64,000 bases of DNA from Acidimicrobiia bacterium (GTDB taxonomy: Bacteria > Actinomycetota > Acidimicrobiia > Spongiisociales > UBA5794). The number at the start of each line of letters is the position of its first letter. Position 1 is the stretch's first letter. Below the pieces are notes generated by a model, which saw nothing but the letters and a program-made list of their open reading frames with translations, was not told where the DNA came from and searched no databases. A program made the translations under genes and the position numbers. Shown here in pieces: positions 39 through 60,443 of this stretch. Location of the stretch: the NCBI GenBank assembly GCA_024762335.1, contig JANTHO010000004.1, positions 5,614 through 69,613 of the forward strand, read 5' to 3'.

Positions 39-89
39 CGACACGAACCCAGGGTTCTCTGCGCCCTATATGACGTTCTGAGCCCGCGG
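39..89 (+). repeat. 51-bp dispersed repeat, copy 1 (singlet)
   Basis: CGACACGAACCCAGGGTTCTCTGCGCCCTATATGACGTTCTGAGCCCGCGG; matches nine other copies in the window. Confidence 0.95.
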
Positions 90-114
90 AATGCCGGGGC
101 GGTACTGTGGTGGC

Positions 115-627
115 GTGAATGCGACGATTCGTGCAGCCGACACGGGGGACCTCGGGCGCATCAACGAGATCTACAACGGGTACATCATCGGTTCGCACAT
201 CTCGTTCGATCTCGAGCCCTGGAGCCTCGGTCGGAGGGAAAGGTGGTGGCGGCGCTACACCGATAGCGGGCCATATCGAGTGCTTGTCGCTGAGGTCGGC
301 GGGCGGGTCGTCGGTGCGGCATACAGCAGTCCGTACCGGACGAAAGCGGCGTATCAGACCTCCGTCGAGACCACCATCGTCATCGATCCGATGTTCGTCC
401 GGCGCGGAATCGGCTTTCGTCTGCTTGCGACACTGCTCGAGAACCTTCGGGAAGCGGGCGTCCATCGCGCCTACGCAGTCGTGGCACTCCCGAACGAGGC
501 CTCGATCCGTCTCCACGAAGCACTGGGGTACCGGCGCGTCGGCACACTCGACGAAGTGGGCTTCAAGATGGGCAGATTCTGGTCGACACTGATCTTGGAG
601 AAGCGGATCGACGATCCCGGTGAGTGA
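115..627 (+). CDS. GNAT N-acetyltransferase (phosphinothricin acetyltransferase/YncA-MddA-like)
   Basis: Motifs YNGYI..SHISFD, AYSSPYRTKAAY..SVET, RRGIG, NEASIRLHEALGY, VGFKMGRFW. GTG start at 115 is 6 nt after TACTGT (ORF track start at 91). Confidence 0.88.
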   Translation: MNATIRAADTGDLGRINEIYNGYIIGSHISFDLEPWSLGRRERWWRRYTDSGPYRVLVAEVGGRVVGAAYSSPYRTKAAYQTSVETTIVIDPMFVRRGIGFRLLATLLENLREAGVHRAYAVVALPNEASIRLHEALGYRRVGTLDEVGFKMGRFWSTLILEKRIDDPGE

Positions 628-662
628 ACGAGAAGCTCGCAGACTCCGGTAGGTTGCATCCT

Positions 663-757
663 GGAGGTGTCCGGACGCCTGGTGGGTCCCCCGGTCTTCA
701 AAACCGGTGAGGGTGCGAGAGTGCCCTGGCGGGTTCGATTCCCGTCCACCTCCGCCA
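663..757 (+). tRNA. selC: tRNA-Sec (anticodon UCA)
   Basis: Acceptor GGAGGTGT/CCACCTCC-G-CCA; extended D stem GGAC..GTCC; anticodon arm CCGGT-CTTCAAA-ACCGG; long variable arm AGGGTGC-GAGA-GTGCCCT; T arm GCGGG-TTCGATT-CCCGT; 95 nt. Confidence 0.95.
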
Positions 758-820
758 CCCACGGCAGTGCCGCGCCCGTACCGGAGCGAACGATGCCGAC
801 GAAGATCGAAACGAGACGGT

Positions 821-1423
821 GTGACCAACAGATCCGAATCCAGATCAGGCGGACCACCTCCACCATGGCCCGACGGGAATCCGGACGTCATCCCAACCGG
901 AACGCCGCGAGGGTGGAAACGTGCACGCCTGGCGATCGACGGAGACGTGCACGTCGCTGCACTGTATTCGGACGAGCAGGAAGACCTCTGGTCGGTGACC
1001 GGTGTCGCGTTCTGTCATATGGGAGGGAACCCGTTCGAACCGGGGCATCTGCAGCATTGCAGTTGCGGACTCCGGGTATGGGATTCGCGATCGAAACTGG
1101 ATCGCGATCTGTCGTGCGGCGTTGCCGCGTCGATCTATCCCGTCGCCGTCCTGTGCGCTGTTGAATGGCATCCACCGAGTGTCCAGGAGCCGAGATGCCG
1201 CCGCGTGGCTGCCGCAACGCTCCTGGGTGTCTCGGTCCGCAACTACTGCCTCCGCTGTGCACGGAGGGGCGTTCGAGGCTTCATCAAAGGGAGGGCGATC
1301 GGGCGAACGACACACGAACTGTGGGGAGTGTGCGAGCACTGTGCTGACGACACGTGGATCACGATCAATGAAGCGTCGGCGAGCCTGGGGGTGCCGATCG
1401 TCGTCGACCCCTGGCTGCCCTGA
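821..1423 (+). CDS. Cys/His-rich hypothetical protein (putative metal-binding)
   Basis: Frame of ORF 707..1423. The true start must lie after the tRNA; GTG at 821 is a guess. Motifs HLQHCSCG, CLRC, CEHC, terminal SLGVPIVVD. Confidence 0.45.
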   Translation: MTNRSESRSGGPPPPWPDGNPDVIPTGTPRGWKRARLAIDGDVHVAALYSDEQEDLWSVTGVAFCHMGGNPFEPGHLQHCSCGLRVWDSRSKLDRDLSCGVAASIYPVAVLCAVEWHPPSVQEPRCRRVAAATLLGVSVRNYCLRCARRGVRGFIKGRAIGRTTHELWGVCEHCADDTWITINEASASLGVPIVVDPWLP

Positions 1424-1464
1424 CCTGCCCTGGAGCACCGCCCCCGACGACTACGATCTCGTCC

Positions 1465-2250
1465 ATGGATGGCCAACCCCTCATTCCTTCGCTGGACGAT
1501 GCCGACCTCACCCGCCGCATCCCGAAGCGTGAAGCACTCGAACGTCTCAAGACGGCCCAGACACGGATGGTTCAACTCCGCCTCCAACTCGGCGGCAAGC
1601 TCGGTACCGGTGAGCTCGGACCGCCCGTCTGCTTCGTCTTCGAGGGGTGGGATGCATCCGGGAAGGGTGGGGCCATCAAGCGACTCGTCACGCCGATGGA
1701 TCCGCGCCACGTCCGGGTCATCACCATCGCCGCACCGACGGACGACGAGCTTCGCCATCACTGGCTCCAGCGGTTCTGGCCCCATCTCCCCGGCTGGGGC
1801 GGCGTGGCGGTCCTCGACCGTTCCTGGTACGGCCGGGTGCTCGTCGAGCGGGTCGAAGGCTTCGCAGAGGTCGAGCAGTGGCGCCGCGCCTACACGGAGA
1901 TCATCGACTTCGAACGAACACTCGTCGCCGAAGGCATGGTGTTCGCCAAATTCTGGATGCATGTCTCATCCGGGGAGCAGCTCCGCAGGTTCGAGGAGCG
2001 GAGAACGAATCCGCTGAAGCAGTGGAAGCTGACCGACGAGGACTGGCGGAACCGCGACAAACGTGTTCAGTATGAGATCGCCGTTGAGGAGATGCTGGCC
2101 CGTACGTCATGGGACCGTGCCCCGTGGTTCGTGGTTCCAGGCGAGTCGAAACGGCTCGCGCGCGTCGAGGTGCTCGAGACCGCGATCGCGGTCATCGAAG
2201 CGGGCATGCGGCTCCACGGGATGGAACCCGTGCCGCCGCTGCCGGCGTAG
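1465..2250 (+). CDS. ppk2: Polyphosphate kinase 2 family protein
   Basis: Walker A FEGWDASGKGGAIKR, Walker B DRSWYGRVLVERVEG, lid KQWKLTDEDWRNR. Confidence 0.93.
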   Translation: MDGQPLIPSLDDADLTRRIPKREALERLKTAQTRMVQLRLQLGGKLGTGELGPPVCFVFEGWDASGKGGAIKRLVTPMDPRHVRVITIAAPTDDELRHHWLQRFWPHLPGWGGVAVLDRSWYGRVLVERVEGFAEVEQWRRAYTEIIDFERTLVAEGMVFAKFWMHVSSGEQLRRFEERRTNPLKQWKLTDEDWRNRDKRVQYEIAVEEMLARTSWDRAPWFVVPGESKRLARVEVLETAIAVIEAGMRLHGMEPVPPLPA

Positions 2251-2269
2251 CAGCCGAAGGCCTCCCGGC

Positions 2270-4054
2270 CTACTTCTCGTACAGCTTCTCGATGTCGTCG
2301 CCGTACTTTGCCATCACCGCACGACGCTTGACCTTCAGGCTCGGTGTGAGAAGACCGTTCTCGGGAGCGAACTCCTCCGGTTCGAGGACGAAACCGCGCA
2401 CCTTCTCGTAGCCCTTGATGTCCGACGAGCGCCGATCGATCTCACGCCGGAACAGGTCGGTGAGTTCCTCGCTCTGAAGGAGTGCATCCTGCGAGAGATC
2501 GGTGAGCCCATGTTGCTCCGCCCACTTGGTCACCGCTTCCATGTCCGGGACGATGACTGCGACGTTGTACGGGCGCTGCTCCCCGTAGACCATGACGTTC
2601 GAGACGTAGCCGGACAGCTGGATCTGCTCCTCGATGGGGCCGGGTACGACGTATTTGCCGTTCTCCAGCTTGTACTGCTCCTTGATGCGACCCCTGATGA
2701 AGATGAACCCATCCTCGTCTTTGTATCCGAGATCGCCGGAGCGGAAGCCGTGGTCGGCCGTGAAGACCTTCTCGTTCTCCTCCGGCAGGTTGTAGTAGCC
2801 GAGCATGACGTTCGGACCGTGGATGACGATCTCACCGATCACAGAATCGCCGGTGACATCGGTGTCGATGTCGATGTGGACCCCGGGTATCTCCCTGCCG
2901 ACCGATCCGATCCGACGACTCCCCGGCCAGTTCCCACTCGCGACCGGGGACGTCTCGGTCAGGCCGTAGCCCTCGTAGACGGTCATCCCGAGCGCTGAGA
3001 TGAACTCGGCGACCTCGACGTTGATCGCCGCACCGCCTGAGATCGAGTACTTGAGCCGCCCACCGAATCCCTCTCGCACCTTCGAGAAAACGAGCTTGTC
3101 GTAGAGGTTGTGCTGGAGCTCGACCCACTTCGTGGTCTTGCCTTCCGCAGCGAGCGCCGCCCGCTTCTTCTCATTTGCCATCGCCCGATCGAAGATCGCC
3201 TTGGTGACACCGCCCTTTGCGGCCATCATCTTCTGGAGGCCGTCGTACACGCGGTTGTACACGGTTGGCACCGACACCAGGATCGTCGGCTTGACCTCCG
3301 GCAGGTCCTCCATGAGGGTCCTCGCGCTCGTCAGCCCCGCCGATGCTCCCGCAGCGATCAAGAAATGCAGTTCGACCGTCTGCCCGAACGAGTGTGCCCA
3401 CGGGAGGAACGACGCGAAGCGGTCATCGGCTGTGATCGGGAACAGATCGGGGAACACGTTGACGTTGCTCGTGATGTTGCCGTGCGACAGCATCACTCCC
3501 TTCGGGTTGCCGGTCGTCCCGGATGTGTAAATGAGCCCGGCGAGGTCGTTGGATTCGGGACTCGTGGTCCCGACCGGGGCTTCAGCACCGCGAGCCAGGA
3601 GTTCCGCCCAGGTGATGGCGCCGCCCCCCGCTTCGCCGTTGATCACGACGATCTGTTCCAGAGATGGAAGATTGTCGAGGTGGTCTTCGAGCTGGGCGCG
3701 AATTCCGTCATCTGCGACGATCGCTACCTTCGCCGCGGCGTTGCCGATGATGAACTCCCATTCCTTTGAGAGCTGCGCCTCGTACATCGGTACCCAGGCG
3801 GCACCGAGACCGTACGTGGCGTACGCACCTACGGCCCATTCGACGCGGTTATCGGAGATGGCGGCGACGCGATCCCCCTGCTCGACACCGAGCCCGGCGA
3901 GACCGGCACGGGCGAAATCGACCTGTTCACCGAAGTCCCGATAGGACATCCACGTCCAACCGCTCTCATCTTTCGTCCCGAACAACGGGTTGTCGGCGAA
4001 TCGACCGATGCTCGATTCATACAGGTCGACGAGATTGCGAAACTCCGTGCCCAC
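2270..4054 (-). CDS. fadD: Long-chain fatty-acid-CoA ligase (AMP-dependent synthetase)
   Basis: YTSGTTGNPKG, YEGYGLTETSP, FRSGDLG, GRIKE, TPSLKVKR. GTG at 4054 follows a GGAGG RBS. Confidence 0.92.
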   Translation of the reverse strand: MGTEFRNLVDLYESSIGRFADNPLFGTKDESGWTWMSYRDFGEQVDFARAGLAGLGVEQGDRVAAISDNRVEWAVGAYATYGLGAAWVPMYEAQLSKEWEFIIGNAAAKVAIVADDGIRAQLEDHLDNLPSLEQIVVINGEAGGGAITWAELLARGAEAPVGTTSPESNDLAGLIYTSGTTGNPKGVMLSHGNITSNVNVFPDLFPITADDRFASFLPWAHSFGQTVELHFLIAAGASAGLTSARTLMEDLPEVKPTILVSVPTVYNRVYDGLQKMMAAKGGVTKAIFDRAMANEKKRAALAAEGKTTKWVELQHNLYDKLVFSKVREGFGGRLKYSISGGAAINVEVAEFISALGMTVYEGYGLTETSPVASGNWPGSRRIGSVGREIPGVHIDIDTDVTGDSVIGEIVIHGPNVMLGYYNLPEENEKVFTADHGFRSGDLGYKDEDGFIFIRGRIKEQYKLENGKYVVPGPIEEQIQLSGYVSNVMVYGEQRPYNVAVIVPDMEAVTKWAEQHGLTDLSQDALLQSEELTDLFRREIDRRSSDIKGYEKVRGFVLEPEEFAPENGLLTPSLKVKRRAVMAKYGDDIEKLYEK

Positions 4055-4144
4055 GCTTCCTCCTGGATCGCTCAAGAGTCAACGATAGCGACTGCGTCCA
4101 CAGGATGAGCAGAGGGAGCCACGGCGACGAGATATCCTGACACC

Positions 4145-4642
4145 ATGATCGCAGACAAGACGTTTGGACAGGCGATACGCGAAGCCCGTCTTGCGAAAGG
4201 CATGTCGATGGGCCAGCTCGCTGCCAAGGTCGAGCGTTCGACGGCTTCGGTACGTCGATGGGAACGGGACGAGGGTCGCCCGGCCGAAACCGTCGTCCAG
4301 CGTCTCGTGGAAGTGCTCGACCTCGGCGATGATGAATATGCTCCCGTTCATCCGAACGTGCCGTCCGCCGCGGTCGAGCCGGAGCCGAGCGTCTCGGGCG
4401 CAACCCGCGCCACAGCACAGGCACCTGCAGACACGACTGGCATTCCATCAGTGTCGCCTGCGAAACCTGCCAACTGGTTCGACCGGTTGCGCGATCCCAA
4501 TCAACCGTGGCTCGGATACATCCGGGCGGGGCTCACCATCGTCGTGCTCCTGGCGCTCGGCTGGGTGCTGATCTGGGCGCTCGCGGGGTTGACCGGCGCG
4601 CTGGGGGACATCTGGGAGTCGCTCTGGTCCGGAGCGGGCTGA
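4145..4642 (+). CDS. XRE-family HTH protein with Pro/Ala linker and C-terminal transmembrane helix
   Basis: IREARLAKGMSMGQLAAKVERSTASVRRWERD (HTH_3-like) and a hydrophobic C-terminus; TATCCT lies 6 nt upstream of ATG. Confidence 0.8.
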   Translation: MIADKTFGQAIREARLAKGMSMGQLAAKVERSTASVRRWERDEGRPAETVVQRLVEVLDLGDDEYAPVHPNVPSAAVEPEPSVSGATRATAQAPADTTGIPSVSPAKPANWFDRLRDPNQPWLGYIRAGLTIVVLLALGWVLIWALAGLTGALGDIWESLWSGAG

Positions 4643-4646
4643 GGGT

Positions 4647-5363
4647 TCAGGTGAGGGCCCGGACGATGAGCCCGACGGCGCCGAGCAGGGACAAACCGAG
4701 CACACCGTTGCGGACGAACTTGTGCGAGATTCGATTCTTGATCCTCAGACTGGTCAAGTATCCGGCGAACAAAGCCGGGAAGAGGATCGTCGCGACACGA
4801 AGATCCGAGAGTGAGATGTACCCCGCAGCGATGCGCGTGCCGAGGGTGATCGTGAGGCCGATGGAGAAGACGGCGGCGAGGTTCGAGCGGACCGTGGGGC
4901 CATCGTCTCCCGAATACAGCAACGCCAGCGGCGGACCGCCGATCGAAGCGATCAGGGACGATGCCCCGGAAAGGACGCCGGCACCGAATTCCGATGCCGG
5001 ATTGCGCGTCACGTGAAAACCGAATGCGACGATCGCCACCGCGACGATGACCGCGCCGGCGATCGCGAGATCGAGCGTCCGCTGGGTCGCCACGGCGAGA
5101 AGTCCGAGACCCAGAATTGCCCCCGGGACCCGCCCACCGACAATCCATGCGATGTTGGACGGCGCGATATGCCGACGTTCTCTCCACGCCATCGTGAGCG
5201 TGAGGGGGATGGTGATGAGCAGTTGAGGGACGGGGGCCAGCGCCGGGTCGATGAGAGCCAGGATCGGAACCGACACCATGGCGAAACCCATCCCGACGAC
5301 CCCTTGGATCATGGCGGCGATGAACGTCACGAGAAGTGCAGCGATGAGAGCCGGGATGGACAT
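4647..5363 (-). CDS. TSUP (TauE/SafE) family membrane exporter
   Basis: IQGVVGMGFAMV and SIGGPPLAL motifs; about 8 TM helices; ATG at 5363 is 7 nt after TATCGT. Confidence 0.88.
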   Translation of the reverse strand: MSIPALIAALLVTFIAAMIQGVVGMGFAMVSVPILALIDPALAPVPQLLITIPLTLTMAWRERRHIAPSNIAWIVGGRVPGAILGLGLLAVATQRTLDLAIAGAVIVAVAIVAFGFHVTRNPASEFGAGVLSGASSLIASIGGPPLALLYSGDDGPTVRSNLAAVFSIGLTITLGTRIAAGYISLSDLRVATILFPALFAGYLTSLRIKNRISHKFVRNGVLGLSLLGAVGLIVRALT

Positions 5364-5525
5364 CCTGTGAACGATAGGGCCGTGCCCTCCCGAAGCATCT
5401 GCTACCGCCGCCCCGCGATCTCGACCAGCCAATGTCGAATCTGGTCGGAGCCAGATCGATTCCGATGGTGAAGAGATTGATGTCTATCGCGCGATCCGAC
5501 AACGCGCACGGCGGCGGGTCGAGAC

Positions 5526-6452
5526 TTAGCCGCGATCGCAGACGTCGGGGGCGAAGATACCAATCACGATCGAATCCGGATTCGTGCCGCCGACCGGCCC
5601 CCAAAGGAGGAGGTTCCCCGAATCGGCCCCGCGCAATTCGAAGATGTCCCCCAACGTGGGATGAACGGAGAACGTGACATCTTCGTTCTCATAGACCTGT
5701 TGCAGGCGCTCGACCGTCTCACCGGCCTTGAAGCCGCTCAATGTTGTGAGGTCCATCGCGGGGGAATCGAGACCGCCGAGGCTGATGTCCTGACGGTACC
5801 CGTTGAAGACCTGGCTCGTTCCGTCGCTTGTCAGAATGACCGCGAACGGGCCGAAGCGGACGATCCGCTCGAGATCGCCGGTGCAGACTCCCCATTGGCC
5901 GGTCGACACCTGCCACGGGATGTCCTCATCCGCCTCGCCGAAGCTCGATACCAACCGGCCGACCGAGATGTCGGCAGGATCGCCAAACTTCAGATCGGGT
6001 ACGTCGTTGATCTGGATACCGATCCGATCGCCCTTGAGCTTCATCTTGTCGACGGGTATGGGGTTCCCGACGGGTGGATAGGGCTTCGAAGGGGGCGTGA
6101 CCACCTCGCTCGTCGTCGATGTGGTTGAAGAATCCCCGGGGACGGTCGTTTCGGTGTCGTCACCGGCGATCGTGGTTGTGGTCGCCTCGGCTTCCGTGGT
6201 CGTGTCGTCGCTCTTGAGAAGTTGGAAGACGGCGACGGAGAGCGCGACGAGGAGGAGGCCGACGACGAGGCCGGTGAGGAGGGGGGATCCGGGTGGGGTT
6301 GCCGGTGGAGTCCGCGGGTCTTCGAGGGGCGGAATCGGATCATCGCCCGACATGTCCGTCAAGTCCGAATACGGGTCGGTCCATCCGGGCGGGTTGCCGT
6401 ACGGGTCTCTCGGGTCGCTCACGTCGTATCGGTCCTCCAGGCGGTTCCCCAT
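5526..6452 (-). CDS. Membrane-anchored protein with Thr-rich linker and uncharacterised external domain (paralog of 8515..9534)
   Basis: Single TM, poly-Thr linker, C-terminal domain ending LLWGPV...GIFAPDVC. Confidence 0.8.
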   Translation of the reverse strand: MGNRLEDRYDVSDPRDPYGNPPGWTDPYSDLTDMSGDDPIPPLEDPRTPPATPPGSPLLTGLVVGLLLVALSVAVFQLLKSDDTTTEAEATTTTIAGDDTETTVPGDSSTTSTTSEVVTPPSKPYPPVGNPIPVDKMKLKGDRIGIQINDVPDLKFGDPADISVGRLVSSFGEADEDIPWQVSTGQWGVCTGDLERIVRFGPFAVILTSDGTSQVFNGYRQDISLGGLDSPAMDLTTLSGFKAGETVERLQQVYENEDVTFSVHPTLGDIFELRGADSGNLLLWGPVGGTNPDSIVIGIFAPDVCDRG

Positions 6453-11460: not shown

Positions 11461-11829
11461 ATGCGTGTCGAAGCACTCGTCGGCGGGGCATCCGACGTCG
11501 TCGGTCCTGAGACCACCCTCGGCGATGCCGCCGGGGTGTTGATCGCTCGCGGAGTCGGGGCATTGGCGGTCGTGGACGGAAGGAAGTTCGTCGGGATCAT
11601 CACCGACAGAGATCTGGTGAGGGCGATGGCCGACGGGGTCGATCCGGACGAACCGGTGGCTTCATGGATGACCGATGGGCCCGATACGGTCCCACCGGGT
11701 GTGAGCGTTTCGGAAGCCGCCGACTGGCTGCTCGAGACCGGGTACCGGCATCTCCCGGTTGCCGTCGGCGACGAACTGCTCGGGATCGTCGATATCCGCG
11801 ACGTCCTCTGGGCCCTCCGCAAAGCCTAA
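11461..11829 (+). CDS. CBS-domain pair protein
   Basis: GIITDRDL, YRHLPV, GIVDIRDV; GGAGGGAG RBS before ATG 11461. Confidence 0.88.
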   Translation: MRVEALVGGASDVVGPETTLGDAAGVLIARGVGALAVVDGRKFVGIITDRDLVRAMADGVDPDEPVASWMTDGPDTVPPGVSVSEAADWLLETGYRHLPVAVGDELLGIVDIRDVLWALRKA

Positions 11830-11880
11830 CGACACGAACCCAGGGTTCTCTGCGCCCTATATGCGGTCTCGGGCCCGCGG
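11830..11880 (+). repeat. 51-bp dispersed repeat, copy 2 (left inverted repeat of nuclease gene)
   Basis: CGACACGAACCCAGGGTTCTCTGCGCCCTATATGCGGTCTCGGGCCCGCGG, starting immediately after the CBS gene TAA. Confidence 0.95.
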
Positions 11881-11937
11881 TATGGTTGGTCGATCAGACC
11901 TCTAGCTTCGGGGGCCGATTTGTGGCAGCTTGTTGCC

Positions 11938-12870
11938 ATGAATCCAGATCGAACTGCAGGCACGATCGCCGCTCGACAAGGCGGCGCCATCCGTCCCGAA
12001 CAGGCATTTGCCTGTGGCTTCACACGAGGTCAGATCGACCAGCGCGTCAGGGACGGACGTTGGCGATCGATCGGTCGATTTGGATATCGGGTCATCGAGA
12101 TGCCGGGATCGATGAACCTGGTGCGAGCAGCCGTTGCGACGCTGCCGGATGCCGTGGTGTCTCACGATACGGCGGCCGAGATGCACGGCTTGTCCAAACT
12201 CCGCAGAGGCGTTGCCTCAGTCCTGGTGCACTCGCGTACGACCCATGTCTTTCCGGGGGTGATTGTCCACCGGTGCCACGATCTTCTCGACGAACACTTC
12301 GTCGAGATCGACGGTCTCCCGGTCACGACGGCAGCGCGAACGATCGTTGATCTTGCCCCGTTTCTCACGGCGAGGCACCTCACGGCTGTGCTCGCCTCGG
12401 CTGTGACCGAACAGCACGTCTCCGCAGATGCGGTGCAGAATGTTGTGGGTCAGGTTGCGAGACGCGGCAAGCCCGGCATTCAGAAGATCCGACGGATTCT
12501 CGAGGAACGTGAGCTGGGGCCGAGAGACGGCACGCAGCTTGAGCGCAAAGGGGCCGAGGTGCTTCGGGCCGGCGGCCTGCCTACGCCGCGATTCGAATAT
12601 CCGATCCCCTGGGATCCAACCCGACGATTCGATGCTGCCTACCCGAAAGGGCGTCTCGCTATCGAGTGGGATTCCCGTCGTTGGCACGAACTCGTGGAGG
12701 CGTTCGCCCGTGATCGACAACGGGATCGCGAAGCCATGCTTCACGGATGGAGACTGATCCGGTTCACATGGGTGGATGTCGCCCGGCACCAGCGTGACGT
12801 CGTGGAAACGGTACGACAGTTGCTGCTCGCCGATCCGGCGTCGACGTCACTCTCTCATACCGCGGGCTGA
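11938..12870 (+). CDS. AbiEi-antitoxin-like N-terminus + DUF559/Vsr-like PD-(D/E)xK endonuclease domain protein
   Basis: ARQGGAI..Q...G....I..RV..GRW; VVSHDTAAEMHGL; GLPVTTAARTIVDLA; RFDAAYP..RLAIEWDSRRWH..RDRQRD....GW.LIRFTW. Confidence 0.85.
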   Translation: MNPDRTAGTIAARQGGAIRPEQAFACGFTRGQIDQRVRDGRWRSIGRFGYRVIEMPGSMNLVRAAVATLPDAVVSHDTAAEMHGLSKLRRGVASVLVHSRTTHVFPGVIVHRCHDLLDEHFVEIDGLPVTTAARTIVDLAPFLTARHLTAVLASAVTEQHVSADAVQNVVGQVARRGKPGIQKIRRILEERELGPRDGTQLERKGAEVLRAGGLPTPRFEYPIPWDPTRRFDAAYPKGRLAIEWDSRRWHELVEAFARDRQRDREAMLHGWRLIRFTWVDVARHQRDVVETVRQLLLADPASTSLSHTAG

Positions 12871-12910
12871 CAACGCCATATAGGGCGCAGAGAACCCTGG
12901 GTTCGTGTCG
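12860..12910 (-). repeat. 51-bp dispersed repeat, copy 3 (right inverted repeat of nuclease gene)
   Basis: CCGCGGGCTGACAACGCCATATAGGGCGCAGAGAACCCTGGGTTCGTGTCG. It contains the nuclease TGA stop and abuts the ATPase gene stop at 12911. Confidence 0.95.
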
Positions 12911-15298: not shown

Positions 15299-15349
15299 CC
15301 GCGGGCCCGAGACCGCATATAGGGCGCAGAGAACCCTGGGTTCGTGTCG
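15299..15349 (-). repeat. 51-bp dispersed repeat, copy 4 (singlet; exact reverse complement of copy 2)
   Basis: CCGCGGGCCCGAGACCGCATATAGGGCGCAGAGAACCCTGGGTTCGTGTCG, abutting the TAA stop at 15350. Confidence 0.95.
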
Positions 15350-16357
15350 TTAGAGGCCGAGGCGTTGGCGGATGACGGAGAACGCGTCATCCGACTCCTC
15401 TGGGATCATGAAGGAGAAGCCCCGGTGACCCGTGAGCTTCTTCACCAGCTCCACCGACGCCGTTGTGTTCGTGGCCATCCCCGCGACGACGTCCGGTTCG
15501 TAGCCGAAACCGGCGATCACGCCCGAGACAGCGTACGGATCCGACGCGCACAACACGGTGCACCGGACGTTCTCCCCGAGCTCTTCGAGCACAATCTCAC
15601 CGTTGTACGGCTCGAGCGGGGATGCGCCGGCCTCCGCCACGACCACATCCGGGCGTCGGGAGGCAACGAGGGCGAGCAGGTCGCGGAGCCTCGAGCGAAA
15701 GAAGTCCGGATCGGCGATCGTCGACGGGAGGCCAACGTCCACGAAGTCGTAGATGTCGTCTGCGCCGGAGTCCCACATGGCAAGCACATCCCGGTAGCGC
15801 CCGGCCCCGGTGAGTTTCGTTCCGACGATGTGCAAGCCGAGTTCCTTGAGATGCCGGATGATGCGCTTGGCGGCCGTCGTCTTGCCCGCCGACATCGACG
15901 TTCCGATCACGATGACGGTCGGTATGTCGTAGATGACATCGGGAACCGGTGGGACGAAGTCGCCCATCGTCATCTTGCGACCGCCACGGGTCACGTGGCC
16001 CACATAGCGGAGGCGCATCAGCGGCGGCATGAGCGGAGCGATGGAGGTGACACGCCCGAACAGGCCGGCTGCCGTGAGAGCGTTGAACATGCCGTCGTCT
16101 CCGATGTGAGTCCAGTCGCCGACCGCTTCGAGTGTGGCCCTTCGAATTCCCCACGCTCCGACGACGAGATCCCCTTCGACCACTTCGATCATGCGTCCAT
16201 TGCGAAGCTCGACGCGTGAATACATTCCGGCCCGGCCGACGACTCGCCCGACGACGTAGTCGCCGGCGTCCCAGTCGTCGCGATTCCACGGTTCGATGTT
16301 GAACGGGTCCTCGGCGAGGTTCGAGATGCGTGTCAGGGACGAGAAGAAGTACTTCAT
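15350..16357 (-). CDS. DUF1611-like P-loop protein
   Basis: VIGTSMSAGKTT, KLTGAGRYRD, GADDIYDFVDVGLPST; translationally coupled to the upstream M20 gene. Confidence 0.7.
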   Translation of the reverse strand: MKYFFSSLTRISNLAEDPFNIEPWNRDDWDAGDYVVGRVVGRAGMYSRVELRNGRMIEVVEGDLVVGAWGIRRATLEAVGDWTHIGDDGMFNALTAAGLFGRVTSIAPLMPPLMRLRYVGHVTRGGRKMTMGDFVPPVPDVIYDIPTVIVIGTSMSAGKTTAAKRIIRHLKELGLHIVGTKLTGAGRYRDVLAMWDSGADDIYDFVDVGLPSTIADPDFFRSRLRDLLALVASRRPDVVVAEAGASPLEPYNGEIVLEELGENVRCTVLCASDPYAVSGVIAGFGYEPDVVAGMATNTTASVELVKKLTGHRGFSFMIPEESDDAFSVIRQRLGL

Positions 16358-24166: not shown

Positions 24167-24217
24167 CCGCGGGCCCGGGACGCCATATAGGGCGCAGAGA
24201 ACCCTGGGTTCGTGTCG
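24167..24217 (-). repeat. 51-bp dispersed repeat, copy 5 (singlet)
   Basis: CCGCGGGCCCGGGACGCCATATAGGGCGCAGAGAACCCTGGGTTCGTGTCG between divergent genes. Confidence 0.95.
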
Positions 24218-29201: not shown

Positions 29202-29252
29202 CGACACGAACCCAGGGTTCTCTGCGTCCCATATGACGTTGTCAGCCCGCGG
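29202..29252 (+). repeat. 51-bp dispersed repeat, copy 6 (left arm of empty doublet)
   Basis: CGACACGAACCCAGGGTTCTCTGCGTCCCATATGACGTTGTCAGCCCGCGG. Confidence 0.93.
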
Positions 29253-29271
29253 TTCACGAGGTGTCTCCATT

Positions 29272-29322
29272 CCGCGGGCCCGGGACGCCATATACAAAGC
29301 AGAGAACCCTGGGTTCGTGTCG
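29272..29322 (-). repeat. 51-bp dispersed repeat, copy 7 (right arm of empty doublet, 19-nt spacer)
   Basis: CCGCGGGCCCGGGACGCCATATACAAAGCAGAGAACCCTGGGTTCGTGTCG. Confidence 0.93.
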
Positions 29323-29343
29323 GGGAGGGGTAGGGTCGCCGGC

Positions 29344-31377
<2,034 letters not shown>

Positions 31378-45904: not shown

Positions 45905-45955
45905 CGACACGAACCCAGGGTTCTCTGCTTTCTATATGGCGTCTCCAGCCCGCGG
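45905..45955 (+). repeat. 51-bp dispersed repeat, copy 8 (left arm of empty doublet)
   Basis: CGACACGAACCCAGGGTTCTCTGCTTTCTATATGGCGTCTCCAGCCCGCGG. Confidence 0.93.
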
Positions 45956-45984
45956 AATAGAGGAGGTCGTGAAGGCCGGGCGAG

Positions 45985-46035
45985 CCGCGGGCTCACAACG
46001 CCATATACAGGGTCGAGAACCCTGGGTTCGTGACG
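45985..46035 (-). repeat. 51-bp dispersed repeat, copy 9 (right arm of empty doublet, 29-nt spacer)
   Basis: CCGCGGGCTCACAACGCCATATACAGGGTCGAGAACCCTGGGTTCGTGACG. Confidence 0.9.
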
Positions 46036-54764: not shown

Positions 54765-56515
54765 ACCGCTCCACCGGCAACGTTCTCCGCAGGGCATTCC
54801 GCGTCGCTCCTGCCCTCTCGAAGGGGCTCTGGCTCACCCTCACTCTCGCCGTGTTGGGAACGGCTCTCCAGCTCGTCGTGCCGGTCACCGTCCAGCGGAT
54901 CATCGACTCGGTCCTGCTCGCAAGCGGCGGCGTCGACGTGACGTCTGCGGTCACGTCCGGAGCAATCGCACTTCTAGCCGTCGGCCTCGCGATGTGGGCA
55001 AGACGCACCTCCCTCGCGAGGCTCGCTCGATCGTCCGTCACCGGCCTCACCGACCTCCGCATCACGACGTTCAGACATCTCCACAAACTCTCGATGCTCC
55101 ACGTTCAGGCCGAACGCCGCGGCGCCCTCGTCAGCCGTGTCACCTCCGACATCGAGACGATGCAACAGTTCATGGAGTGGGGCGGCGTGGGGATGATATT
55201 GGGAGCCGCCCAGATCTCCCTCGCCGTCATCGTCATGCTCGTCTACGAGTGGCGGCTCGCCCTGATGATCGCCGCCGGCGTCGTGGTGTATTCGCTCCTG
55301 CTGATCTGGTTCCAGCGGATCCTCCGCCGCGCCCACGACAACGTTCGTGAACGGGTGGCCGACTCGCTGTCCGTCATCGGTGAAGCCACCGCCGGACTCC
55401 CGACGGTTCGCGCATTCGGCATGGAATCCGTGGTAATGCGGAAGGTCACGAGGGCACTCGATCGCCAGTACCGGGCCGAGTACGGCGCAGGGGCACTCGC
55501 CGCGGTGCTGTTCTCATCGGCAGAGCTGTTCGCAGGCGTCATCACGGCGTCCGTGGTGGGTGTCGGCGTCACCTTCGGCCTGTCGTGGGGTCTCAGCGCC
55601 GGAACGCTCGTGGCGTTCCTGTTCCTCGTGACCCTGCTCGTCGAACCGGTCCAGATGCTCGTCGAGACAATCAACCAGGCCCAGTCGGCCGGCGCCGGGC
55701 TGCGCAAAGTCCTTGCGCTCATCGACACACCGATCGAAATCGAAGATCCCGTCGACGGCGTGGCACTGCCGGACCGGCCGCTCGACGTCTCCTTCGACGG
55801 AGTGCGTTTCCGCTATCCAACCGGGGACGATGTGCTCACCAATGTGACGGTCTCGATCGGCGCCGGAGAGCGAGTCGCTGTTGTGGGCGAGACCGGATCG
55901 GGCAAGACGACGTTCGCGAAGTTGGCAACCCGGCTACTGGACCCTGCCGACGGAGCGATCAGCATCGCCGGGGTGCCGGTGGATCATGTGCGTTTCGATT
56001 CGCTCCGCTCCCGGGTCTCATACGTGCCACAGGAGGGGTTCCTGTTCGATGGAACGATCGCCGACAACGTCCGTTACGGGAATCCGAGCGCAGACGATGC
56101 GGCGGTCCGTGAGGGATTTGCCGACCTCGGTCTTCTGGAGTGGATCGACTCGCTCCCGGCAGGGATCGACACACAGGTGGGCGAGCGGGGGAGCAACCTC
56201 TCAGCCGGTGAGCGTCAGCTTGTTGCCGTGGTACGGGCATGGATCGCGAATCCGGATCTTCTCGTGCTCGACGAGGCCACATCGGCCGTCGATCCTGCAC
56301 TCGAAGTGCAGATCCGCAGGGCGATCGATCGGCTCACGACCGGACGCACGTCCATCACCGTGGCCCACCGTCTGTCGACGGCGGAAGCATCCGACACGGT
56401 CCTCGTCTTCGACGAGGGGCTGCTCGTCGAGCGCGGCGCACACGACGAGCTGGTCGCGGCAGGCGGTGTTTACGCCGATCTCCACCGGGATTGGGAAGGC
56501 GCCGTTTCCGAGTAG
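54761..56515 (+). CDS. Heterodimeric ABC exporter subunit (TMD+NBD, consensus catalytic site)
   Basis: GETGSGKTT, LSAGERQ, LDEATS, VAHR; ATGA overlap with its partner. Confidence 0.9.
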   Translation: MNRSTGNVLRRAFRVAPALSKGLWLTLTLAVLGTALQLVVPVTVQRIIDSVLLASGGVDVTSAVTSGAIALLAVGLAMWARRTSLARLARSSVTGLTDLRITTFRHLHKLSMLHVQAERRGALVSRVTSDIETMQQFMEWGGVGMILGAAQISLAVIVMLVYEWRLALMIAAGVVVYSLLLIWFQRILRRAHDNVRERVADSLSVIGEATAGLPTVRAFGMESVVMRKVTRALDRQYRAEYGAGALAAVLFSSAELFAGVITASVVGVGVTFGLSWGLSAGTLVAFLFLVTLLVEPVQMLVETINQAQSAGAGLRKVLALIDTPIEIEDPVDGVALPDRPLDVSFDGVRFRYPTGDDVLTNVTVSIGAGERVAVVGETGSGKTTFAKLATRLLDPADGAISIAGVPVDHVRFDSLRSRVSYVPQEGFLFDGTIADNVRYGNPSADDAAVREGFADLGLLEWIDSLPAGIDTQVGERGSNLSAGERQLVAVVRAWIANPDLLVLDEATSAVDPALEVQIRRAIDRLTTGRTSITVAHRLSTAEASDTVLVFDEGLLVERGAHDELVAAGGVYADLHRDWEGAVSE

Positions 56516-56560
56516 GCCATGATCCGCCGGCGTCTGATCGAGATGTCGGACACACTTCAT

Positions 56561-56586
56561 GTGACCGATTTGATCCGTGCCGCGTC
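56561..56586 (+). promoter_or_regulatory. Possible ECF-sigma promoter GTGACC-N16-CGTC
   Basis: Spacing and CGTC -10 resemble ECF promoters; lies just upstream of the operon encoding an ECF sigma. Confidence 0.3.
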
Positions 56587-56622
56587 ATACCGGGTGAACG
56601 AAAGCTACAAAGGAGTTCTTCG

Positions 56623-56829
56623 ATGAAGAATGAAGCGAGTTGGGATCGGATCGTACGCGTCGTCGCCGGTGTTGCCCTGGTCGGGTTCGGTCTTGGTGTC
56701 TTTGCGTCGCCGTGGAGCTGGATCGCTGCCGTGGTCGGTGCGGTACTGCTCGTGACCGGTATCGTCGGCACCTGCCCGCTCTACGCCCTGCTCCGCATCC
56801 GGACCAACGGCGGCGAAGCGAGCAACTGA
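56623..56829 (+). CDS. DUF2892 (YgaP-like) membrane protein
   Basis: MKNE..WDRIVRVVAG...TGIVGTCPLYALL.I.T; AAGGAG RBS. Confidence 0.9.
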   Translation: MKNEASWDRIVRVVAGVALVGFGLGVFASPWSWIAAVVGAVLLVTGIVGTCPLYALLRIRTNGGEASN

Positions 56830-56858
56830 ATCCGGCGGCGAACCCCTGGAGCAACGCG

Positions 56859-57296
56859 ATGAAGACGGCGCGACCCCAAATTCTCTACTTCTACGGACCG
56901 GACTGTCCGGTGTGCAAGACGATGGCGCCGTTCATCGACGAAGCGGGCGAGAAGTTTGAGGGTCGCGTCGATCTGAAGAAGGTGAACACCGCGACGGATC
57001 GGCAACTTGCGAGCCGATACCGGGTGATGGCGGTCCCCACGACGGTCGCTCTCTCCGGCGGCAACGAAGTGACGAGGATCGTGGGGGCGAGAACGCCCGG
57101 TGGTCTGCGGCGCCTCTTCGAGTCGGCGGAGACCGGCGAAGTTCTCGAATCGGGGATTTCGCCGACCGACCGTTGGATCAGGATCGGCGTCGCTGCTGGA
57201 TTCGCTGGATTCGCTGTGTGGACCGGCGTGTGGCTCCTGTGGATCCTCGCTGTCGCGGCGCTCGTGTTTGCGTTCTGGGACAAGCTTCGGCGGTGA
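56859..57296 (+). CDS. Thioredoxin-like protein (CPVC) with C-terminal DUF2892-like membrane hairpin
   Basis: FYGPDCPVCKTM, YRVMAVPT; tail DRWIRIG...2 TMs. Confidence 0.82.
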   Translation: MKTARPQILYFYGPDCPVCKTMAPFIDEAGEKFEGRVDLKKVNTATDRQLASRYRVMAVPTTVALSGGNEVTRIVGARTPGGLRRLFESAETGEVLESGISPTDRWIRIGVAAGFAGFAVWTGVWLLWILAVAALVFAFWDKLRR

Positions 57297-57331
57297 CCGT
57301 TGTGCGGGCGACCCGATAGCGTCGTGATGAG

Positions 57332-57850
57332 ATGCACCAGCGCAGGGAACCGCAACTCGATCCCGGTCGGCTCTTCGACACGTTTGTCGACGGCGTCTAC
57401 ACGCTTGCCTACCGGATCGTACGTGACCGCCACCACGCGGAGGATGTCGTCCAGGAGACGTTCATCAAAGTCGTTCGGTCCATCGGAACGTACCGGGGCG
57501 ACGGTCCGATCGCCGCGTGGATCTACCGCATCGCGTATCGCGAAGCGATCACGGTCACACGGCGGCGAACCGAGGAGCCGGTCGACCCGGTTGAGGCACT
57601 GGTCCGGGCCGAACGGGCCGGCGGAAGCGTCGAGGAGCAGGTGTTGGCGGGAGAACTCGCCATCCGGCTCGACGAGGCGATCGGCACGCTCACGGAACCG
57701 GTCCGGGCGGCGTTCGTACTGCGGGACGTCGAAGGGCTCTCGACCGCGGACGTCGCTGTCGCCCTCGACGTTTCGGAATCGGCAGTCAAGATGCGGCTCG
57801 CCCGTGCCCGGGAGTCGCTCCGCATGCAACTGGAGGAGTATCTGAGATGA
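57332..57850 (+). CDS. ECF sigma-70 factor
   Basis: AEDVVQETF, AWIYRIA, LRDVEGLSTADVA..L.VSESAVKMRLARAR. Confidence 0.92.
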   Translation: MHQRREPQLDPGRLFDTFVDGVYTLAYRIVRDRHHAEDVVQETFIKVVRSIGTYRGDGPIAAWIYRIAYREAITVTRRRTEEPVDPVEALVRAERAGGSVEEQVLAGELAIRLDEAIGTLTEPVRAAFVLRDVEGLSTADVAVALDVSESAVKMRLARARESLRMQLEEYLR

Positions 57851-58074
57851 AGATCCAGTGCGATCAACTCGCGTCGTTGCTCCCCGAATTCTTCGATGGG
57901 ACCCTCTCAACAGACCAGACGGACGCCGCACTCGACCATTTCGCGACCTGCGAGAGTTGCCGGCTCACGGTCGATGAGCTCGAAGGCGTCCGGACATTGG
58001 CGGGCGAGTACGGGCGCCTCGAACTCCCATCCGATGCAAAGGACCGGATCCGGCGATCGATTGGCCTCGATTGA
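57847..58074 (+). CDS. Soluble zinc-binding anti-sigma factor (zf-HC2/ZAS)
   Basis: N-terminal Cys, LPEFFDG, HFATCESC (HxxxCxxC); coupled to the sigma gene; no TM. Confidence 0.88.
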   Translation: MKIQCDQLASLLPEFFDGTLSTDQTDAALDHFATCESCRLTVDELEGVRTLAGEYGRLELPSDAKDRIRRSIGLD

Positions 58075-58312
58075 GGAGACCCGGACGCGCAGAAGCCCCC
58101 ACGGATGGGAGCTTCTGTGAACCCTGTGAGGTGGACCGATGCGGTCTATGTTGGATCATCCCGCATTGGGTACTACTTACCCCGCCGGCCGTCCCACCGG
58201 TTCTCTACCATTATCGGCACGAGGCACCCGAACATGTGGGGTTTTCTCCGCTCGCCGGCTGATTTGATTCGGGCGACCTACGCGCCGGTGCCGCCGCATT
58301 GGAGGTGGCCAC

Positions 58313-59194
58313 ATGCTTGAACTCGTCGACGTCACGAAACGATTCGGCGACGTTGTTGCGCTCGACCACGCAGGGTTCACGGTCGATCCGGGTCGCATCT
58401 CTGGCTTCCTCGGTCCGAACGGGGCGGGGAAGACCACGGCGATGCGTGCGGTGTTCGGACTGATCCGGCCCGACTCCGGGACGGTGCGATGGAACGGCGC
58501 CCCCGTCGGGCCCGCCGAGCGCATCCGGTTCGGATACATGCCGGAGGAGCGGGGCCTGTATCCCAAGATGAAGGTCCGTGACCAGCTCGTCCATTTTGCC
58601 CGCCTATCCGGGCTCTCGAAGAGTGAGGCGAACGATGTCGTCGACCACTGGCTCGGCGTGCTCGGGCTCGCTGATCGCGGCGATGCGAAGCTGGACGATC
58701 TGTCGCACGGCAACCAGCAACGGGCACAGCTCGCGACGGCGCTCGCTCACAACCCGGATCTGCTCATTCTCGACGAGCCGTTCGCCGGGCTCGATCCGAT
58801 CGGGGTCGAGTCGCTTGCGGAAACGCTTCGCGGACTGGCATCCGACGGTGTGACGATCGTCTTCTCCAGTCATCAGCTCGATCTCGTCGAGGACGTGTGT
58901 GAGGACGTCGCCATAATCAACGACGGACGGGTCGTCCTCGCGGGCCGTCTCGACGAGATCAAGAACCAGTCCTCGAGACGGCGGCTCTCGATCGACGTCG
59001 ACGGAGAACCGTGGATCCCGGACCTGCCCGGAGTTGAAGTGGTTGATGGTCCCGGACCCTCGCATTGCATCGTGGACGATGACGCCCCGGTCGGCGACCT
59101 GATCGCTGCGGCCAGCGCGGCGGGGACGGTGAATCGATTCGTGTTCGAGCCGCCGAGGCTTACCGACCTGTTCCGCGAGGCGGTGACGCCGTGA
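58313..59194 (+). CDS. ABC-2 transporter ATP-binding protein (YhaQ/NatA-like)
   Basis: GPNGAGKTT, GYMPEERGLYPKM, LSHGNQQR, LDEPFAGLDP, SSHQL. Confidence 0.9.
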   Translation: MLELVDVTKRFGDVVALDHAGFTVDPGRISGFLGPNGAGKTTAMRAVFGLIRPDSGTVRWNGAPVGPAERIRFGYMPEERGLYPKMKVRDQLVHFARLSGLSKSEANDVVDHWLGVLGLADRGDAKLDDLSHGNQQRAQLATALAHNPDLLILDEPFAGLDPIGVESLAETLRGLASDGVTIVFSSHQLDLVEDVCEDVAIINDGRVVLAGRLDEIKNQSSRRRLSIDVDGEPWIPDLPGVEVVDGPGPSHCIVDDDAPVGDLIAAASAAGTVNRFVFEPPRLTDLFREAVTP

Positions 59195-60381
59195 ACCCGT
59201 GGCGCCAAGTCGGTTTGCTCGCGAAGCGGGAGTTCATCCAGCGGGCCACGAGCAAGCCGTTCCTCATCACGATGGCGCTCCTCGCGGTTGTGATCCTCGC
59301 GATCGGCCCGGCCGTCAACCTGTTCACGGGGGGCGAGGGTGAATCGACGAAGGTCGGAACTGTCGGTGACACGCCGCCGGGATTCGAAGGCGAACTGCAG
59401 AACCAGGCGACGCTCTTCGACATGACGGTCGAAACCGTCGCCTATTCGGATCGATCTGAAGCGGAGACCGCGCTGACCGAAGGTGACGTGGCGGTCGTCC
59501 TCGCCGGTGGTAACGAGATCATCTTCCACACAGACGCCTCATCGCGTCTCACGGCGCTCCTCCACAGCACGGTGAACACGACGGTGAAGGCGGAGGTTCT
59601 GTCCGAACTCGGCGTCCCGGAGAACGAAATCGCCTCCGTGCTCGCTCCGGTGCCCGTGGAGGTCACGACCCTCGACGAAGCCGATGTGCAGGATGAGGCG
59701 AAGAAGGGGGCGGCATTCTTCGGTGCGATTGCCCTGTACATCTCGATCATCATGTTCGGGCAGTTCGTGGCGATGGGCACGGTCGAGGAGAAGCAGAACC
59801 GGGTTGTCGAGGTCGTGCTTTCCCGCGTTCGACCGTGGCAGGTGCTCGTCGGGAAGGTTGTCGGGATCGGCGCGCTCGGTCTGCTGCAACTCGCGATTCT
59901 TGCCGGTGCCGCGTACGCGTCTGCGCAACTCGCCGACCTCGCCGACATCGATGTTGCCGCGATCGGCCTGCCCATCATCGCTTCGGTGTTCTTCTGGTTC
60001 ATCCTCGGCTACACGTTCTATGCGTTCCTGTATGCGGCGGTCGGTTCCACCGTGTCGCGGCAGGAGGATCTGCAGGGGGCCATCATGATTCCGATCGCTC
60101 TGATTCTGCCCGGGTACATTCTGGCGATCGTGGCTGCAGAGAACCCGGATGGGCCGATTCCGACGATTGGATCGTGGCTCCCTCCGTGGGCCCCGTTTGT
60201 GATGCCGGTACGGATCGCCGCAGGGGTCGCCCAACCGTGGGAGCTTGGTGTGGCGATCCTCGGCACGATGATCGGAGCGGTTCTGCTCGTTTGGGTCGGA
60301 TCGCGGATCTATGCCGGGGCCCTGCTCCGCACGAGCGGGAAGGTCAAGTTCCGGGAAGCCTGGCGGGCCGCCGCCGAGTAG
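59191..60381 (+). CDS. ABC-2 transporter permease (YhaP/NatB-like)
   Basis: AKREF, VEEKQNRVVEVVLS, GKVVG, PFVMPVR. Confidence 0.9.
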   Translation: MNPWRQVGLLAKREFIQRATSKPFLITMALLAVVILAIGPAVNLFTGGEGESTKVGTVGDTPPGFEGELQNQATLFDMTVETVAYSDRSEAETALTEGDVAVVLAGGNEIIFHTDASSRLTALLHSTVNTTVKAEVLSELGVPENEIASVLAPVPVEVTTLDEADVQDEAKKGAAFFGAIALYISIIMFGQFVAMGTVEEKQNRVVEVVLSRVRPWQVLVGKVVGIGALGLLQLAILAGAAYASAQLADLADIDVAAIGLPIIASVFFWFILGYTFYAFLYAAVGSTVSRQEDLQGAIMIPIALILPGYILAIVAAENPDGPIPTIGSWLPPWAPFVMPVRIAAGVAQPWELGVAILGTMIGAVLLVWVGSRIYAGALLRTSGKVKFREAWRAAAE

Positions 60382-60392
60382 CGATCTCTATA

Positions 60393-60443
60393 CCGCGGGC
60401 TGGCAACGCCATATAGGGCGCAGAGAACCCTGGGTTCGTGTCG
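60393..60443 (-). repeat. 51-bp dispersed repeat, copy 10 (singlet)
   Basis: CCGCGGGCTGGCAACGCCATATAGGGCGCAGAGAACCCTGGGTTCGTGTCG; one mismatch to copy 3; lies between convergent genes. Confidence 0.95.

Follow-up and report, generated by a model that had tools for sequence, protein, structure and literature searches.

A dispersed palindromic repeat family of Acidimicrobiia and the AbiEi/DUF559-type nuclease gene that it brackets: a candidate two-part element

We describe here a family of 51-nucleotide (nt) palindromic repeat units, together with a nuclease gene that two of these units bracket, in a 64,000-nt stretch of DNA (the window) from an Acidimicrobiia bacterium. On balance, we favor the reading that units and gene form one system that follows the logic of the REPIN-RAYT systems (inverted doublets of repetitive extragenic palindromic [REP] sequences and the REP-associated tyrosine transposase) with an enzyme of a different class. 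The observations that carry this reading are that inverted units bracket the gene, that a paralogous nuclease gene is paired with a repeat family of its own, that loss of the gene goes together with decay of the units, that units and gene have disappeared core to core, that a unit has been gained at a new site, and that unit interiors have been replaced by each genome's own sequence.

The window comprises positions 5614 to 69613 of contig C4 of the 2.42-Mb metagenome-assembled genome (MAG) G000, which consists of 117 contigs with a G+C content of 64% and was placed in the Acidimicrobiia by its marker proteins and close relatives. Its 2,483 genes, including their starts, were called with a simple in-house caller, and comparisons within the genus used 21 genomes; every genome used is a MAG. 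Window positions are given as plain numbers and all others with our handles for genomes, contigs (C) and loci (L).

A repeat family built of two boxes

The 13-nt core GAACCCAGGGTTC occurs exactly 10 times in the window, against 0.04 occurrences expected from shuffled sequences, and every occurrence sits in the 51-nt frame CGACAC-core-TCTGCGCCC-TATATG-N10-CCCGCGG. An earlier, sequence-only reading of this DNA had listed ten copies, each with an intact 13-bp palindrome and each intergenic or overlapping no more than a stop codon. All ten were recovered with an exact core, and our gene calls bore out the placement, the stop codon of the nuclease gene lying inside one of the units. Its claim of an invariant 51-nt length held for the frame shared by the ten copies but not for the full unit, which is longer, having a C-rich 5' extension and a 3' tail of AATGG or TTCR. 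Where it had foreseen hundreds of copies in the genome, we counted 78 units of this family (family 1), using an nhmmer profile built from the ten window units, and 25 copies of a sister family (family 2). All of these units are intergenic or at gene ends, and the window is ~4-fold enriched in family-1 units relative to the genome.

Alignment with relatives showed that in each unit a short variable hairpin separates a palindromic box A (ACCC-W-GGGT) from a box B (GCCCRCRG), with both boxes invariant and at a fixed spacing; box A is embedded in GAACCCAGGGTTC or GTACCCAGGGTAC. The 78 family-1 units make up 55 loci, 33 of them single units and 22 of them doublets, which are always arranged tail to tail, with the CCCGCGG (box B) ends pointing inward and a spacer of 19 or 29 nt between them. 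The units of the window, and the gene that two of them bracket, are as follows.

39-89, + strand: unit 1, single, flanked by a leftward gene and one for a GNAT acetyltransferase
11830-11880, + strand: unit 2, directly after the TAA of a CBS-domain gene; left bracket of the nuclease gene
11938-12870, + strand: nuclease gene, the sole gene between units 2 and 3, whose box B ends face it; its stop codon lies inside unit 3
12860-12910, - strand: unit 3, bracketing the nuclease gene on the right; the TGA of a HerA-like gene directly adjoins its 5' end
15299-15349, - strand: unit 4, single, directly after a TAA; identical to unit 2 at 51 of 51 positions
24167-24217, - strand: unit 5, single, upstream of a peptide-binding lipoprotein gene
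29202-29252 (+) and 29272-29322 (-): units 6 and 7, a doublet with a 19-nt spacer (29253-29271), between divergent LOG-family and prolyl oligopeptidase genes
45905-45955 (+) and 45985-46035 (-): units 8 and 9, a doublet with a 29-nt spacer (45956-45984), between divergent genes
60393-60443, - strand: unit 10, single, between convergent ABC-2 permease and amino acid permease genes; a TAA lies 2 nt from its 5' end

Family 2 has the same build around the core GAACCCAGGGCTC. Its units have a TATAGG center, a CCC..G box and AACG or TTCG tails, they include doublets, and none lies in the window. Examples are as follows.

C56:3402 and 4467: family-2 units
C2:11732/11830: family-2 units
C15:39248/39346: family-2 units

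The nuclease gene is bracketed by inverted units

The nuclease gene occupies the position that the 19- or 29-nt spacer has in the gene-less doublets. Its homologues in three genomes of other genera (L196, L164 and L221) also lie between inverted units, in each case of the type found in the same genome. When 121 genomes of the order were surveyed with a five-protein profile, the gene was found in 67 of them, in 1 to 7 copies. For an unbiased test, which starts from the protein and not from the repeat, we took the 30 best nuclease loci of the order (39 to 100% identity) and found CCCWGGG within 200 nt on both sides of the gene in 27 of them, against a background of 0.19 per kb in the outer flanks. 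Furthermore, the two flanks were inverted repeats of each other, 12 to 57 nt long, at ~25 of the 30 loci (blastn).

The pairing of gene and repeat extends to the paralogues. The only paralogue in G000, on C56, is 50% identical to the window protein and is bracketed by family-2 units, of which the genome holds 23 further copies; a paralogue in G027 is bracketed by units with the variant core GAACCTTAGGTTC, which has 5 copies in that genome and none in four others.

In several genera (L289, L287, L288, L290, L292, L296 and L306), box A motifs recur every 36 nt beside the nuclease gene, with two to four of them on each side. A similar 35-nt double is present in G000 at C8:41678-41728.

The gene product has 310 residues, with an N-terminal winged helix-turn-helix (wHTH) of the AbiEi type and a C-terminal nuclease domain of the Vsr/DUF559 type (REase_MTES_1575). 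The Pfam families AbiEi_4 and MTES_1575/DUF559 matched five of five members, the MTES_1575/DUF559 match of the window protein being below the curated cutoff. When an AlphaFold model of the window protein (mean predicted local distance difference test score [pLDDT], 81.6) was searched with Foldseek, its N-terminal two-thirds resembled AbiEi (6y8q; E value, 1.7e-5) and Rv2827c (1zel), and its last ~95 residues resembled the catalytic domain of the homing endonuclease I-Bth0305I (3r3p; template modeling [TM] score, 0.74 to 0.75; root mean square deviation, 2.8 Å) and NGO0050 (3hrl). A search of the PDB by sequence returned only noise. An alignment of five members shows no variation in the motifs RRFD, ExWDSRRxH and DRxRDR (invariant D232, E243, D245 and H250), and the protein as modeled fits a Vsr-like PD-(D/E)XK fold with conserved acidic and histidine residues. 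The AbiEi proteins themselves bind inverted repeats and repress through them (PMC7319586), and the Vsr/DUF559 clade includes a homing endonuclease (PMC3424549, PMC3239194). No AbiEii (DUF1814) toxin gene was found beside the nuclease gene, whose neighbors are the CBS-domain gene and the HerA-like gene.

Relatives of the protein carry the public names "very-short-patch-repair endonuclease," "AbiEi family antitoxin domain-containing protein" and "DUF559," and many of them are on contigs of ~1.0 to 1.3 kb, as would be expected if, in many metagenomes, flanking repeats broke the assembly on both sides. A published prediction of inversion targets, which are genes with inverted repeats on either side, also showed an enrichment of DUF559 genes (PMC9881135).

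All orthologues of the genus share a conserved stretch, GTGGCA-N5-TTG(T/C), immediately before the nuclease start codon (window ~11915-11937). Unexpectedly for Actinobacteria, it looks like a sigma-54 -24/-12 element, and it may be coding or operator sequence.

Loss of the nuclease gene coincides with decay of the units

Counted with a strict pattern, whose reversed control gave no hits, the repeat family is present in all 21 genomes of the genus, in 1 to 76 copies. A close nuclease is absent only from G015, G008 and G005, where intact units are also scarcest (1, 3 and 13, respectively); G003 also seems to be without one, the locus falling in a contig break. In a tree of the HerA-like protein, G008 pairs with G017 (69 units) as its sister and G005 with G009 (55 units). 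Since each is sister to a unit-rich genome, the nuclease gene was lost recently and independently in these two lineages. At the syntenic site, all that both genomes have left between two stop codons is the 5' flank, one core and the inverted 5' flank (25 nt in G005 and 23 nt in G008), the whole tract of unit, gene and unit having been excised exactly from core to core.

The main rival explanation, which we consider unlikely, holds that the units are independent REP-like repeats, spread or kept alike by host recombination or some other factor, and that the nuclease is a selfish homing endonuclease parasitic in the loops of doublets, which would serve as its homing sites. It has in its favor the homing-endonuclease fold of the C-terminal domain (PMC3239194), the location of the gene exactly at the spacer position, the up to seven gene copies in some genomes and the unrelated genes, described below, that inverted units also bracket. 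Against it stands the coincidence of two independent nuclease losses with the collapse of the units, from 55 to 69 in the sister genomes to 3 to 13. A private repeat family for each paralogue is, moreover, what would be expected if the enzyme shapes the repeats, and ~20 gene-less doublets have been left uninvaded in most genomes. We nevertheless retain this explanation, because the link between loss and decay gives no direction of cause.

Units are shared by position, alike within a genome, and gained and lost

Units 2, 3 and 4 and the doublet upstream of the prolyl oligopeptidase gene occupy the same positions throughout the genus, and minority subfamilies are common to several of its genomes. 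Each genome has a master sequence of its own: CAC-GAACCCAGGGTTC-TCTGCGCCC-TATATG in G000, CGC-GTACCCAGGGTAC-GCGACGTCC-TATTTG in G011 and G004, and GTACCCAGGGTTG-CAGTCCCCG-CCGGCG in G020, which holds at least 18 identical 43-mers. Identity was 0.86 among paralogous units within one genome versus 0.74 among orthologous units across genomes, and the units appear to evolve in concert within a genome.

A clear gain was found at one operon junction: G020, G004 and G011 have a unit there, whereas eight genomes have none. The filled junctions are nearly identical in their flanks, but from the center of box A to box B each matches its own genome's master. Clean losses with small palindromic scars were seen at L012 and on C2 of G000, and tandem arrays with a period of 59 to 60 nt were seen at L091 (four copies) and L085 (two copies). 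No target-site duplication was found at the gain or loss sites examined. A duplication of TA or GTAC, considered from a comparison of L012 with L010, was set aside in favor of a loss, since the site is occupied in nearly every relative.

At junction locus L124 (C12:35054 in G000), the downstream gene seems, when the junction is empty, to start at a CTG that overlaps the upstream TGA (CTGA); when the junction is filled, the downstream gene has a new GTG start just after the unit. At L114, a 1-kb segment of G020 (C58:5899-6990) places a TetR-family gene between inverted units, where G000 has one unit (C15:24319-24369). We had considered a transposase in this 1-kb insert; its gene encodes the TetR regulator. 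In view of this and the other genes between inverted units (described below), units may mark places of gene gain or loss.

Diverged units were detected with a covariance model (R1) in 17 of 59 sampled genera of the order, and a scan of all species genomes for the exact pattern gave hits almost only in MAGs of Acidimicrobiia and Actinomycetota. In the other genera, the two boxes enclose a strong hairpin, the stem letters of which differ wholly from genome to genome while the pairing is kept (for example, GAAGCGTCG/CGACGCTTC, GAGACCAC/GTGGTCTC and GACCGCC/GGCGGTC), with folding energies of -12 to -17 kcal/mol versus -3 to -5 kcal/mol for shuffled sequences.

Placement beside genes and folding

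Genes at the unit loci run in the same direction in 24 cases, converge in 12 and diverge in 13 (49 loci; 27% divergent). The flanking genes are functionally unrelated, including those for the CBS-domain protein, the HerA-like ATPase, prolyl oligopeptidase, the LOG-family protein, the GNAT acetyltransferase and the permeases. Unrelated neighbors in all four gene arrangements argue against a regulon and against a pure terminator.

Where a gene runs into a unit from the box A side, as it does in ~28 copies, the 5' end of the unit lies 0 to 6 nt past the stop codon, and the distance from stop to core is 6 nt in 16 cases and 8 nt in 7. These stops comprised 21 TAA, 3 TAG and 4 TGA codons, whereas genome-wide usage is 6% TAA, 25% TAG and 69% TGA (n = 2,403); stops beside the box B end follow genomic usage. 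This bias could reflect a preference for insertion next to TA, a conversion tract that brings the TAA along with the unit, or selection against a leaky UGA just upstream of a hairpin. The stops before box A ends in the window are at the following positions.

11827-11829: stop codon before the box A end of unit 2
15350-15352: stop codon before the box A end of unit 4
~60446: stop codon before the box A end of unit 10

The window also contains a selenocysteine tRNA (tRNA-Sec) gene at 663-757 on the + strand, with the anticodon TCA, identified by Rfam (73 bits) and ARAGORN alike. Hence, the host probably uses selenocysteine, which could be relevant to the avoidance of UGA upstream of the repeat hairpins.

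Promoters of the leaderless type, with a -10 box TAGGGT or TAGCCT 6 to 8 nt before the ATG, precede the prolyl oligopeptidase gene and several other unit-adjacent genes, and the units stop 5 to 15 nt upstream of these -10 boxes (window 29323-29346 and orthologues). The unit itself was considered as an archaeal or leaderless promoter (TATATG plus ATG) and rejected, as the host is bacterial, TATATG is unlike TANNNT and few of the ATGs share the frame of a gene. An in-frame unit resembling the mycobacterial interspersed repetitive units was likewise set aside, since three frames are open with no consistent small open reading frame and the tail in relatives is AACGG, not AATGG. A LexA (Cheo) box does not fit either, the spacing being GAAC-N5-GTTC rather than N4 and other genomes having GTAC cores.

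Might the units be fixed sites of an AbiEi-like regulator or nucleoid organizer, with an idle nuclease domain and nothing mobile? Box A is palindromic and at a fixed spacing to box B, AbiEi proteins repress via inverted repeats (PMC7319586), the 13 divergent loci lie beside -10 boxes, and sites are kept at orthologous positions, all of which would suit such a role. We judge it distinctly improbable, however: the neighboring genes share no function, most units are at gene 3' ends, and the near-identity over 51 nt, the master sequences, the swapped interiors, the tandem arrays and the new insertion are unlike operators. The invariance of the nuclease motifs likewise speaks against an idle domain.

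Folding bears on a further alternative, in which the units act as RNA, whether as a terminator, as a hairpin that stabilizes mRNA in the 3' untranslated region or as a structured motif after stop codons. Single G000 units folded no better than shuffled sequences, whereas doublets folded far below them (z scores of -11 and -12). At -4.5 kcal/mol and without compensated pairs, the consensus structure is a weak one, and the box A stem shows marginal covariation. The mean folding energy is nearly equal on the two strands (-6.6 versus -6.7), which points to DNA and not to a strand-specific RNA. The position just after stops, the folding of the doublets, the stems that change letters and keep their pairing in other genera and the avoidance of UGA beside box A all favor an RNA role. 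We find such a role very doubtful given the behavior of single units, the weak consensus, the lack of strand asymmetry, an orientation relative to transcription of 10 to 6 and the 27% of loci between divergent genes, where no transcript ends. RNA structure of single units was rejected on the comparison with shuffled sequences and the weak covariation. An RNA-element or operator role is at most secondary.

The sequence-only reading had held that the 1-nt arm spacing is too short for a hairpin, which was too strong, since a 5-bp stem with a 3-nt loop is possible. It had further preferred a dimeric protein-binding site to a REP. The first half of that proposal has gained a candidate binder in the AbiEi-type wHTH-nuclease, whose gene the units bracket; the contrast with REP was overstated, as the inverted doublets at 22 of the 55 loci and the strong between-box hairpins of other genera are REPIN-like traits. 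The two matches that it had named as grounds for refutation, a known Rfam RNA and the ends of a known insertion sequence (IS) or miniature inverted-repeat transposable element (MITE), did not materialize. The sole Rfam match in the window was the tRNA-Sec, a doublet giving only subthreshold matches to long-hairpin microRNA models, and no transposase of a known IS or MITE turned up, as described next.

Conventional transposases

The Y1 transposase domain (Y1_Tnp, PF01797; RAYT/IS200 type) was absent from G000 and from 20 of the 21 genus genomes, although it was detected in control genomes, and TnpB was absent from all 21. The G000 assembly holds no multicopy element of >1 kb, and a plasmid collection gave no match to the units. 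These results weigh heavily on the idea that the units are MITEs of a conventional IS (DDE or HUH) whose full-length copy is missing from fragmented MAGs. A doublet does look like terminal inverted repeats around a short interior, copy numbers and subfamily mixtures vary by genome, and MAG assemblies often lose IS copies. Yet the lack of target-site duplications, together with the enzymes missing from the genus (DDE families were not searched one by one), the missing long element and the missing plasmid match, makes this idea hardly credible, and near-complete genomes in 7 to 20 contigs (G016 and G009) still hold 55 to 67 units.

An unrelated repeat of ~400 nt is present in at least five copies with 85 to 89% identity (G000 C10:44640-45085, C33:5885-6347, C25:12902-13347, C48:10051-10451 and C40:17-403).

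A model and the points against it

In the two-part element that we favor, the 51-nt units would be the noncoding members and the gene at 11938-12870 the coding member. The wHTH would bind the box A palindrome (GAACCC-A-GGGTTC, CCWGG-centered) as a dimer, and the nuclease might then nick or cut at or near the CCWGG-centered core. Repair of the break, or a cut-and-rejoin reaction between identical cores, would copy sequence from unit to unit. This process could homogenize the units of one genome and, on occasion, either plant a new copy or remove all of the DNA between two cores. Benefits to the host, such as 3'-end hairpins between convergent genes, would be secondary.

Several findings weigh against this model. 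Three of the 30 nuclease loci (L300, L304 and L310) are without CCCWGGG on both sides, L304 having the variant core in its place. While 26 of 29 unit-bearing genomes have the gene, so do 41 of 92 genomes that are negative with R1, and these counts ignore phylogeny. The boundaries of the replaced tracts vary and fit plain gene conversion as well as a cut made by an enzyme. Inverted units also bracket genes other than that of the nuclease, namely, a gene for a zinc-ribbon membrane protein (G000 C5:41699-42540), the TetR gene in G020 and a gene of unknown function at L160. (The two unit-bracketed genes on C4 and C5 that are of equal called length were compared as possible kin and are not homologous.) Causality in the link between loss and decay could run in the opposite direction, with the repeats decaying first and the nuclease gene being lost afterwards. 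Finally, we know of no PD-(D/E)XK nuclease that carries out strand transfer alone.

A bolder version of the model, which we put forward only tentatively and hold to be possible rather than probable, is that these elements are a new class of mobile or self-maintaining prokaryotic DNA. The nuclease would cut the center of the palindromic core and rejoin identical cores, thereby excising, inserting or swapping cassettes, and many of the actinobacterial AbiEi/DUF559 proteins that have no assigned function would be the enzymes of such elements.

If the link between units and nuclease holds, a large actinobacterial protein family (AbiEi/DUF559, "very short patch repair endonuclease") gains a testable function. 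The link would also explain the ~1-kb contigs on which these genes are found and their enrichment among predicted inversion targets (PMC9881135). If true, it would provide a naturally occurring nuclease specific for a defined palindrome of 13 bp.

Comparison with known systems

MITEs and palindrome-associated elements of the IS200/IS605 group are, like the units, short and nonautonomous, with hairpin potential and with subfamilies amplified unequally among genomes. Unlike them, the units live in a genus without TnpB and, in 20 of 21 genomes, without TnpA (Y1); no target-site duplication was seen, and the sites are old and orthologous.

The AbiEi antitoxins (Streptococcus agalactiae AbiEi and Mycobacterium tuberculosis Rv2827c) share with the window protein an N-terminal wHTH and a middle domain, and the family binds inverted repeats (PMC7319586). 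In contrast to AbiEi of the type IV toxin-antitoxin systems, the window protein has a fused nuclease domain and its gene has no adjacent AbiEii nucleotidyltransferase gene, while the inverted repeats flank the gene on both sides and occur at ~50 other loci. With I-Bth0305I, of the Vsr-like EDxHD homing endonucleases, the protein shares the catalytic fold (3r3p) and a gene lodged in a specific DNA element. The gene here is free-standing, however, outside any intron or intein, and carries a fused AbiEi-type module; its "site" is not one conserved gene but a repeat family dispersed in tens of copies.

Like the units, the REP sequences and bacterial interspersed mosaic elements of Escherichia coli have two unit flavors that alternate in orientation with defined short linkers, are amplified in tandem at some loci, have species-specific sequence at conserved intergenic positions and often lie just after stop codons. 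They differ from the units in that here 27% of loci are between divergent genes, single G000 units are poor hairpins and the associated protein is a different one.

The closest parallel is with REPIN-RAYT. To our knowledge, it is the only accepted example of short repeats with very long persistence within bacterial lineages, and REPINs have been described mainly from Gammaproteobacteria; our search of the literature turned up no report of REP elements in Acidimicrobiia or of REPINs or RAYTs in Actinobacteria. REPIN-RAYT systems persist, are inherited vertically and decay without their enzyme (bioRxiv 10.1101/2021.07.10.451892; PMC5581495). Like them, the system described here has tens of short palindromic intergenic repeats, which occur singly and as inverted doublets with long hairpins, and a low-copy enzyme gene flanked by its own repeats, with one repeat family for each paralogue. 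Both are inherited vertically at orthologous sites, have genome-specific masters and decay when the enzyme is absent. The enzyme here, however, is an AbiEi-type wHTH fused to a Vsr/DUF559 PD-(D/E)XK domain and not an HUH-Y1 transposase, the repeats have two conserved boxes with a variable hairpin between them and no GTAG motif, and the host belongs to an actinobacterial class. The same architecture and dynamics are found in Acidimicrobiia with an unrelated enzyme, and if the link holds, this lifestyle arose more than once.

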